A stretch of DNA of 64,000 nt, taken from a virus (Duplodnaviria > Heunggongvirae > Uroviricota > Caudoviricetes). The position numbers and the translations under genes were made by a program. Positions 1,937 through 3,189 of this stretch are shown in pieces. The stretch's first letter is position 1; every line of letters begins with the position of its first letter. The stretch lies in the IMG/VR virus record IMGVR_UViG_2897358383_000002. One strand, written 5' to 3'. The notes under the pieces are model-generated. The model was not told where the DNA came from, made no database searches, and saw only the letters and a list, made by a program, of their open reading frames with translations.

Positions 1937-3189
1937 GCGAGATGAGTTATCTGGAAAAATTGCTGGATGGGGTTGAGGTTGAGTGGAAGACTCTCGGAGA
2001 AGTCGCAAAATATGTACGTGGTTTAATTTATAGCAAATCGAGTGAAAGCGCGGATGGTCAAGGCTATAAAGTGCTTCGCGCTAACAATATCACGCTGTCT
2101 AATAATTGTTTAAATTTAAATGATGTCAAGGTGGTGAGGTTCGACACCAAAGTAAAGAGTTCGCAAAAGCTATATAAGAACGACATTCTAATTAGCGCAG
2201 CAAGTGGTAGCCGTGAACATGTCGGTAAAGTTGCTTACATAGAATCTGATATTGACTACTACTTTGGCGGATTTATGGGGGTCGTCAGATGCGATGAAAA
2301 ATTAAATCCACGTTATTTATTTCACGTTTTAACAAGTGATATTTTCCAAAAATATCTTGATGAAATGTTGAATAGCTCAACCATTAACAACTTGAACTCA
2401 GCCGTAATGGGAAGATTCAAAATCCCATTACCCTGCCCAGATACCCCGGAAAAATCCCTTGCCATCCAGTCTGAAATCGTTCGGATTCTGGATAAATTTA
2501 CTGCACTTACCGCTGAGCTTACCGCTGAGCTTACCGCTGAGCTTACCATGCGTAAAAAACAGTACAACTACTATCGCGACCAGTTGTTGAGTTTTAAAGA
2601 GGGTGAGGTTGAGTGGAAGGCATTGGATGATGTTTTTGACATTGTTGCAGGCGGCGATGCACCAAAAGATGCCTTATCCGAATTTGAGACCGAGGAATTC
2701 AGCATCCCCGTTTTATCAAACGGTATAGGTAATAAATCACTATATGGATGGACTGACAGAGCCAAGATTGAGAAACCGAGTCTCACCATATCTGCAAGAG
2801 GTACTATTGGATGGACTAGCTATAGAAGTAGACCATTCTTTCCGATAGTGCGACTGCTGGTCTTGACGCCAAAAATTAAATTAAACTTGAAGTACGCTTA
2901 TTACTTCATGAAAACCATTGAGAATAATTACAAAATCCCTGAGGCAGGCATACCCCAGCTAACTAAACCGATGCTCAAAGACATTAAAATCCCCTTCCCA
3001 TGCCCCGGTAATCCGGAGGAATCTTATAACGAACAAGCCAGAATCGCAGCGACTCTCGACAAATTTGACGTCTTAACAAATTCGATTACCGAAGGTCTTC
3101 CGCGTGAAATCGAGTTGCGCCAGAAACAATACGAGTACTATCGTGATTTACTGTTCAGTTTCCCAAAACCCAAAACTGTCAGTAATTAA
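1933..3189 (+). CDS. hsdS: Type I restriction-modification specificity subunit (HsdS), Type IC
   Basis: 418 aa with two target-recognition domains separated by the conserved central region [21 protein letters not shown]...[16 protein letters not shown] and the distal conserved region [19 protein letters not shown]. Confidence 0.9.
2506..2547 (+). repeat. 12-bp tandem repeat x3 encoding (TAEL)3 in the hsdS central spacer
   Basis: cttaccgctgag repeated three times in frame. The TAEL copy number sets the spacer length of the recognition sequence in EcoR124I (2 copies) versus EcoR124II (3 copies). Confidence 0.9.

Follow-up and report, generated by a model that had tools for sequence, protein, structure and literature searches.

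The hsdMSR operon and its repeat array

The stretch of DNA examined in this study, referred to below as the window, comprises 64,000 nucleotides of a virus record (Caudoviricetes; IMG/VR IMGVR_UViG_2897358383_000002) and carries a Type I restriction-modification operon, hsdMSR, whose specificity gene, hsdS, contains a perfect tandem repeat of a 12-bp unit encoding the four residues TAEL. The genes of the operon, the parts of the HsdS protein and the repeat array are located as follows.

374-1936, + strand: hsdM, 520 amino acids (aa); Pfam N6_Mtase and HsdM_N; 1156 bits to the EcoR124 M protein
1933-3189, + strand: hsdS, Type IC specificity subunit, 418 aa; two Pfam Methylase_S domains; match to EcoR124 HsdS at 5.6e-71; HsdS fold
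3311-6427, + strand: hsdR, 1038 aa; Pfam HSDR_N, SWI2_SNF2, T1R_D3-like and EcoR124_C; 2255 bits to EcoR124 HsdR
1987-2412, + strand: TRD1, the N-terminal target-recognition domain (TRD) of HsdS, approximately aa 19-160, placed by alignment; unrelated to TRD1 of EcoR124
2446-2586, + strand: D1, the central conserved helix, aa 172-218 (47 residues), which holds the TAEL array; from an AlphaFold2 model, DSSP and conserved columns
2506-2547, + strand: the array of three TAEL units; from Tandem Repeats Finder and translation, the sole triple 12-mer in the window
2617-3012, + strand: TRD2, the C-terminal target-recognition domain, approximately aa 229-360, placed by alignment; unrelated to TRD2 of EcoR124
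3013-3153, + strand: D2, the C-terminal conserved helix, aa 361-407 (47 residues), antiparallel partner of D1; from the AlphaFold2 model and sequence comparison

The genes are arranged in the order hsdM-hsdS-hsdR, with a 4-nt overlap between hsdM and hsdS and a gap of 121 bp between hsdS and hsdR. In the EcoR124 family hsdR forms its own transcription unit; in the window, one promoter-like site was found in this gap (3217-3246), where the scan yields no more sites than it does in shuffled sequence. Type I systems are assigned to families on the basis of complementation, cross-reaction with antibodies and sequence. The HsdR protein matches EcoR124 HsdR (2w00_A/7bst) over 1038 of 1038 residues and contains the EcoR124-type C-terminal domain (PF12008 EcoR124_C, E = 1.2e-71, residues 728-1031), while HsdM matches the EcoR124 M protein (7bst_D) over 520 of 520 residues and HsdS has the expected layout of conserved blocks and TRDs. 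These full-length matches to the EcoR124 chains, together with the EcoR124_C domain, bear out the membership in the Type IC (EcoR124) family that had been proposed from the DNA letters in the original prediction, and, as judged from sequence, the operon is truly of Type IC, with TRDs that form a new pair. The window HsdS is identical to RefSeq protein WP_072196859.1, which is encoded on approximately 22 complete P1-like plasmids of E. coli.

Three blocks of the window HsdS (aa 1-34, 161-231 and 361-418) are nearly identical to EcoR124 HsdS (7bst_A), whereas both of the TRDs lying between them are unrelated to it, and the columns that are invariant among 38 homologues cluster in the same three blocks. 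An AlphaFold2 model of HsdS, built with 37 homologues (mean pLDDT 79) and with helices assigned by DSSP, matches solved HsdS structures in a fold comparison, 7bst_A included. In this model D1 and D2 are of equal length (47 residues each) with three TAEL copies present. The sequence itself gives the same picture, as the distance from LDKF to R(K/Q)KQY at three copies is 17 aa in both helices and D1 can be aligned to D2 without gaps. This equality fits a review in which three TAEL copies are called the optimum on the basis of amino-acid sequence alignments (PMC3874165). Outside the conserved blocks, TRD1 is distantly similar to the N-terminal TRD of EcoKI (approximately 29% identity by our own count), a resemblance that was too weak for half-sites to be read from TRD similarity, and that approach was dropped. 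A homologue search found TRD2 to be common to many hsdS alleles of E. coli and Klebsiella. In the chromosomal hsdS of E. coli NT1N25 and NT1W25 (locus positions 4450-5814), the N-terminal TRD of the window, and with it a 13-residue segment, occupies the slot of the C-terminal TRD, so that by sequence comparison this gene is a natural example of a TRD that has changed position.

The repeat occupies window positions 2506-2547 and is a perfect period-12 array of 3.5 copies with 100% matches and the consensus CTTACCGCTGAG (Tandem Repeats Finder). It is composed of three copies of CTTACCGCTGAG (2506-2541) and a trailing CTTACC, for a total of 42 bp. No other triple tandem 12-mer occurs anywhere in the 64-kb window, and the number expected by chance is roughly 2e-10 (our own arithmetic, approximately 64,000 x 4^-24); within hsdS, Tandem Repeats Finder reported no repeat other than this one. 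The array is in frame with the open reading frame (ORF) at 1933-3189 on the + strand and reads F189-T-A-L192, TAEL, TAEL, TAEL, T205-M-R-K-K-Q. It lies in helix D1, within the central conserved region of HsdS, and the alignment of this region to EcoR124 HsdS (7bst_A) residues 140-236 contains one four-residue gap, at one TAEL, because TAEL occurs twice in the EcoR124 chain of the solved structure. The triple TAEL repeat had thus been described correctly in its coordinates, unit, copy number and location, and hsdS possesses the feature on which spacer variation of the EcoR124I/II type depends, namely a perfect tandem 12-bp TAEL repeat within its conserved central region. A shorter repeat resembling the TAEL unit is present at the 3' end of hsdM (window 1829-1851; 12 bp x 1.9, GCTGAGCTGAAT), where it encodes AELN-AELK. 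This may reflect the evolutionary link that has been proposed between the tails of HsdM and the conserved helices of HsdS (PMC3510504).

Copy-number variants in the lineage and in the Type IC family

An invariant repeat number among relatives had been named at the outset as the observation that would count against a spacer switch. Instead, the number varies, and the same allele is found with three, two and one copies in DNA that does not differ elsewhere. In E. coli Z1002, plasmid p1002-1 has the window hsdS minus exactly one 12-bp unit (two copies); aligned to the window over 49,963 bp, it differs by a single gap of 12 bp and no mismatch, and the identity runs to window position 55,796 (55.8 kb), where IS26 interrupts p1002-1. 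Between the window and the three-copy plasmid p50579417_1, by comparison, 28 positions differ within 33 kb. As this is more than separates the window from p1002-1, the two-copy allele is nested in the diversity of the three-copy form and must therefore be very recent. In a gene-position index, the three-copy protein was present in 697 blocks, the two-copy protein (WP_086352860.1) in 72 blocks and the one-copy protein on 2 contigs. Plasmid NZ_CP069970 of FDAARGOS_1280 is a further three-copy example, and isolate GCA_013025885.1 carries a one-copy plasmid. Nearly all of these loci share the context Lpa-PdcB-Doc-Phd-hsdMSR, and most have 0 single-nucleotide polymorphisms (SNPs) in 8 kb of flank outside the array, which made a SNP phylogeny uninformative as a way of counting independent contractions. 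One two-copy locus (L008, a metagenome contig assembled with MEGAHIT at k=119) has a diverged hsdM and a diverged downstream backbone; this sequence hints at a second background for the two-copy state, short of proving an independent event. No four-copy version of the window allele was found in the search of complete genomes (no near-identical match of 1269 bp), and literature searches on the Type I system of this phage-plasmid, or on its motif, found no publication describing the 3/2/1 allelic series.

A second near-isogenic pair involves the chromosomal Type IC hsdS of the pig-farm E. coli isolates NT1N25 (three units) and NT1W25 (two units), whose sequences are otherwise identical over 10,086 bp, and this case is independent of the phage-plasmid. 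Natural variants that differ in repeat number only, as EcoR124I and EcoR124II do, are therefore represented by p1002-1, by the two- and one-copy contigs and by NT1N25/NT1W25. It could be argued that the two- and one-copy versions are products of assembly collapse and that the lineage is truly fixed at three copies, as many of these contigs come from short-read assemblies and the final 5 kb of the window resembles a mirror copy produced by mis-assembly (see below), indicating that assemblies of such elements are not flawless. However, the 42-bp array is shorter than any read and by our reasoning contains no k-mer twice once k reaches 31, each difference amounts to exactly one in-frame unit, p1002-1 and NT1N25/NT1W25 are complete finished genomes, and the metagenome contig L008 also has two copies. 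Collapse is accordingly a very improbable source of the variation.

The copy number also varies across the Type IC family. Among 5,426 complete E. coli genomes, approximately 1,060 records contained the Type IC conserved region, of which approximately 610 fully cover a two-copy query and approximately 990 cover a three-copy query, the latter figure including two-copy records joined from two pieces. By this count approximately 57% of the complete E. coli Type IC hsdS genes have two copies (approximately 610 records with two or fewer) and approximately 36% have three (approximately 380 records), percentages that are approximate, since they were obtained from the spans of the hits and by subtracting the 80%-coverage count of the two-copy query from that of the three-copy query. 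The highest number seen, again from hit spans, was five copies in NC101 and FDAARGOS_1251. In the chromosome of NC101 the five-copy hsdS (locus L005, 4471-7180) is split by an ISEc45 insertion and is therefore a pseudogene. In IMG/VR, 19 loci had two copies and 6 had three, while a scan of species-representative genomes with a flank-anchored pattern, which proved overly strict, gave 1 match. A protein-cluster collection appears to be without proteins of three or more TAEL copies, as it returned no HsdS with at least three and did not contain the window protein; the distribution drawn from it would mislead and was discarded, because the index has the window protein in 697 blocks and DNA searches give hundreds of three-copy genes. 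The TAEL copy number is demonstrably labile in nature, and three copies are common rather than unusual.

It is possible that such variants are neutral or damaging, and that an HsdS which loses a unit is weakened, inactivated or relaxed in its specificity, with no clean retargeting. The five copies of NC101 stand in an hsdS already split by ISEc45, as would be expected if the array drifts once selection is off, and the one-copy allele is very rare (2 contigs). In addition, changing one helix alone must shift the register of the coiled coil, and how this is accommodated is called unclear in a review (PMC3874165). However, EcoR124 and the EcoDXXI hybrids are each active in both two- and three-copy forms, with spacers one base apart (PMC3874165, PMC10644984), the two-copy form of the window allele accompanies intact hsdM and hsdR in 72 index blocks, and two copies is the commonest state family-wide. 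An explanation in which the variants are without function or harmful is thus unlikely.

Predicted spacer length and comparison with known systems

The TAEL spacer mechanism has been textbook knowledge since 1989. EcoR124I, with two copies, recognizes GAA N6 RTCG, and EcoR124II, with three, recognizes GAA N7 RTCG (Loenen et al. 2014, PMC3874165), the two forms arising by unequal crossing-over (PMC3874165); the account of this precedent in the original prediction was accurate. In hybrids of EcoR124 and EcoDXXI, an altered repeat number shifted the spacer exactly as predicted (PMC3874165), and EcoR124II minus one TAEL unit had a changed specificity and was called an EcoR124I variant by its authors (PMC10644984). 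The methylomes of NgoAV provide a further example, in which the number of LEAT repeats tracks N6 and N7 motifs (PMC6789123).

For the window, these precedents suggest a mechanism in which the three TAEL turns form part of D1, and the antiparallel pairing of D1 with D2 would set the distance and twist of the two TRDs. Because the 42-bp array is perfect, a misalignment by one unit would keep 30 bp of perfect homology, and slippage or unequal crossing-over (the molecular route is inferred) could remove or add one in-frame unit while leaving the rest undisturbed. Each unit would correspond to four residues of D1 lost or gained and, with EcoR124I/II and the EcoDXXI hybrids taken as the model, to a change of one nucleotide in the interval between the two methylated adenines, with the half-sites unchanged. 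For the three-copy allele an adenine-adenine interval of 8 nt is predicted, for the two-copy allele 7 nt and for the one-copy allele, if active, 6 nt. The perfect homology available to a one-unit misalignment would be 18 bp in the two-copy allele and 6 bp in the one-copy allele, and with homology shrinking in this way (30, 18 and 6 bp) contraction should be easier than re-expansion and the one-copy form nearly locked. A change of specificity would leave the host chromosome unmodified at new sites; in Type IC systems, new unmodified chromosomal sites are reported to be tolerated via assembly-based restriction alleviation (PMC12707154). It is therefore very likely that this Type IC hsdS, carried on a P1-like phage-plasmid, contains an array whose gain or loss of one unit shifts the spacer of the recognition sequence by one base, although the change of motif with copy number is projected onto the window allele from the literature on its homologues. 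The novelty resides in the TRD pair, the P1-like phage-plasmid carrier and the natural 3/2/1 allelic series on identical backbones, although a series of this kind is expected from the textbook mechanism.

The closest known relatives are EcoR124I and EcoR124II of plasmid R124, which share with the window system the gene order, nearly identical HsdM and HsdR and nearly identical conserved regions of HsdS, including the TAEL unit. Primers for the EcoR124II repeat contain ACCGCTGAGCTT (PMC10644984), which is the 12 nt of the window in a shifted register. Both systems have natural two- and three-copy forms, the window allele having the EcoR124II number, three. However, both TRDs of EcoR124 are unrelated to those of the window HsdS, so that the half-sites of the window system are not GAA and RTCG, and EcoR124 is carried by R124 rather than by a P1-like phage-plasmid. 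In addition, the residue after the array is T in the window (TAEL-TMRKK) but N in EcoR124, and the window system, unlike EcoR124, also has a natural one-copy allele. EcoDXXI and EcoprrI are like the window allele in having three TAEL copies, with an interval of 8 between methylated adenines (PMC3874165 Table 1) and the same spacing predicted for the window, a likeness of repeat number and interval only, with the TRDs outside the comparison. EcoprrI differs in having the prrC anticodon nuclease within its operon, while none lies between hsdM, hsdS and hsdR of the window. NgoAV, a Type IC system of Neisseria gonorrhoeae, likewise has a four-residue repeat in the centre of HsdS (LEAT/EATL) that varies among strains and correlates with N6/N7 in PacBio methylomes (PMC6789123); it differs in the sequence of the repeat, in its host and in an HsdS-truncating frameshift that affects specificity, and the link to the methylome is one shown for NgoAV.

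Several observations weigh against a spacer switch of this kind or narrow its reach. Sets of records from the same strain (strain 405 x4, the 2020N21-110 series and the 2022N21-074 pair) all keep three copies, and this constancy suggests that the array is stable over short periods. The rule of one TAEL per base pair is extrapolated by analogy to TRDs unlike those of every characterized Type IC enzyme compared, even though the conserved helices that carry the TAEL effect are nearly identical to those of characterized Type IC systems. The one-copy enzyme may be inactive. Finally, some of the short-read counts of two and one copies could be artefacts of repeat collapse, whereas the two complete-genome pairs are not.

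The same-strain constancy also bears on the possibility that the array serves for programmed phase variation at high frequency, comparable to a phasevarion, and generates mixed specificities within every culture. Two near-isogenic pairs differ at the array only and 1, 2, 3 and 5 copies all occur, which together indicate a site that mutates faster than its surroundings. However, phase-variable loci typically have long tracts, of which three 12-bp units fall far short, several sets of records from one strain are all at three copies, and the ratio of three-copy to two-copy forms in the index is roughly 10:1, with no balanced mixture. The locus resembles phase-variable Type I systems, which act through simple sequence repeats (SSRs) or inverting hsdS cassettes, in allowing more than one methylation specificity. 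Unlike them, it depends on the rare in-frame gain or loss of 12 bp and is adjoined by no homopolymer or short SSR, recombinase or spare hsdS. An inverting hsdS shufflon and an SSR frameshift switch were rejected on the same grounds, as no recombinase, spare hsdS cassette or SSR lies beside the operon, and neither the long SSR tracts nor the site-specific hsdS inversion that mark a phasevarion were found there. Atack et al. (2020, PMC7383803) treated the TAEL case as a precedent, outside their own phase-variable loci. Programmed phase variation is therefore improbable. Since the same-strain sets keep three copies and the 3:2 ratio in the index is so uneven, the evidence argues for a mutational hotspot over microevolutionary time rather than for rapid phase variation, and it is in that sense that the word switch applies.

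The phage-plasmid carrier and the significance of the allelic series

DNA from the window, hsdS included, is present at 100% identity on approximately 22 complete E. coli plasmids of approximately 96 kb and in Escherichia phage vB_EcoM-673R5 (Punavirus). Its neighbouring genes are of P1 type and include the C1 repressor, a Cre-like integrase, Ref, Lpa, PdcA/B, Doc/Phd, Ban, Dmt and three tRNAs. Two further features frame the operon.

1-197, - strand: phd, encoding the antitoxin of the phd/doc addiction module; truncated where the window begins, it lies to the left of the hsd module; from the annotation of identical DNA in p1002-1 and p50579417_1
274-6502, strand not applicable: the hsdMSR cargo module, between phd and pap/pmgS, absent from the matching P1 DNA

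P1 genomes match the window at 1-273 (phd) and 6503-9000 (pap, pmgS) only, which identifies the hsd operon as cargo carried at a variable site between phd and pap. The insertion is seen relative to P1, P7, SJ46, RCS47 and D6, while in phage phi456 this site holds a related hsd module whose TRDs are different.

Other parts of the carrier also merit description. Window positions 19978-21638 and 28191-28267 hold three tRNA genes, Met-CAT (tRNA-Ile in RefSeq), Thr and Asn, as does P1, and a 21-bp x 3.7 iteron-like repeat upstream of a replication gene of the RepB family. Outside the window, p50579417_1 (locus L002, 5138-6265) has a gene for a RelA/SpoT-domain protein near homologues of cre and ref, in a stretch with no annotated res/mod genes. 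In P1, the Type III res/mod genes are located in this region, and the defence cargo at that position may have been exchanged in p50579417_1. In p1002-1 (locus L018, 9686-18512), a P1-like tail-fibre gene breaks off at an IS26, beyond which lie a resistance region with aac(3)-IIe and CTX-M-15 and then IncF-like plasmid genes; given this junction and these genes, the 183-kb record is a cointegrate of a phage-plasmid and a resistance plasmid.

The right end of the window is occupied by the tail-fibre region. A 300-bp tandem repeat (5.3 copies, 98% identity) at 54240-55830 on the + strand, mirrored at 59637-61224, lies inside a tail-fibre ORF of 1003 aa (53488-56499), where modules of approximately 100 residues occur five times in the shaft of the fibre. 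The variable region of the tail fibre (56,894-58,561) is inverted relative to p50579417_1 (locus L015), an orientation that fits an inversion, of the Cin type, of the C segment known from P1, a site-specific host-range switch. The last 5.2 kb or so of the window (58769-64000) is a reverse-complement copy of 51,453-56,719 (98.4% identity, with 23 mismatches and 63 gap positions), and the invertible tail-fibre C segment, at approximately 57.7 kb, lies at its centre. This mirror arm is missing from both p50579417_1 and p1002-1, and the reversed match of 59,279-64,000 to p50579417_1 is part of the mirror copy. The small indels scattered through it point to an artefact of fold-back during assembly; a genuine head-to-head duplication is the less probable alternative.

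The mechanism has long been known, and nothing conceptually new is at stake. The value of the locus is that it provides a clean natural allelic series of three, two and one copies, with backbones that show no other difference for tens of kilobases, in a widespread mobile element, at once phage and plasmid, that often carries resistance genes (the CTX-M-15 region of p1002-1, for example). For annotation, HsdS proteins that are 99% identical can differ in specificity, and the transfer of motifs by identity must therefore count TAEL units. For the biology of the Type IC family, it is a test bed for how a coiled coil accommodates a four-residue change, for the function of the one-copy form and for cross-restriction between sibling phage-plasmids; the first of these, accommodation of a four-residue change in one helix, is stated to be unresolved (Loenen review, PMC3874165). 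There is a small chance that the copy number changes often enough to diversify whole populations, so that nearly identical sibling phage-plasmids with three, two and one copies methylate and restrict different sites and thereby exclude each other, with the one-copy enzyme active at an interval of 6. If this were true, an active one-copy enzyme would extend the working range of the Type IC coiled-coil ruler.

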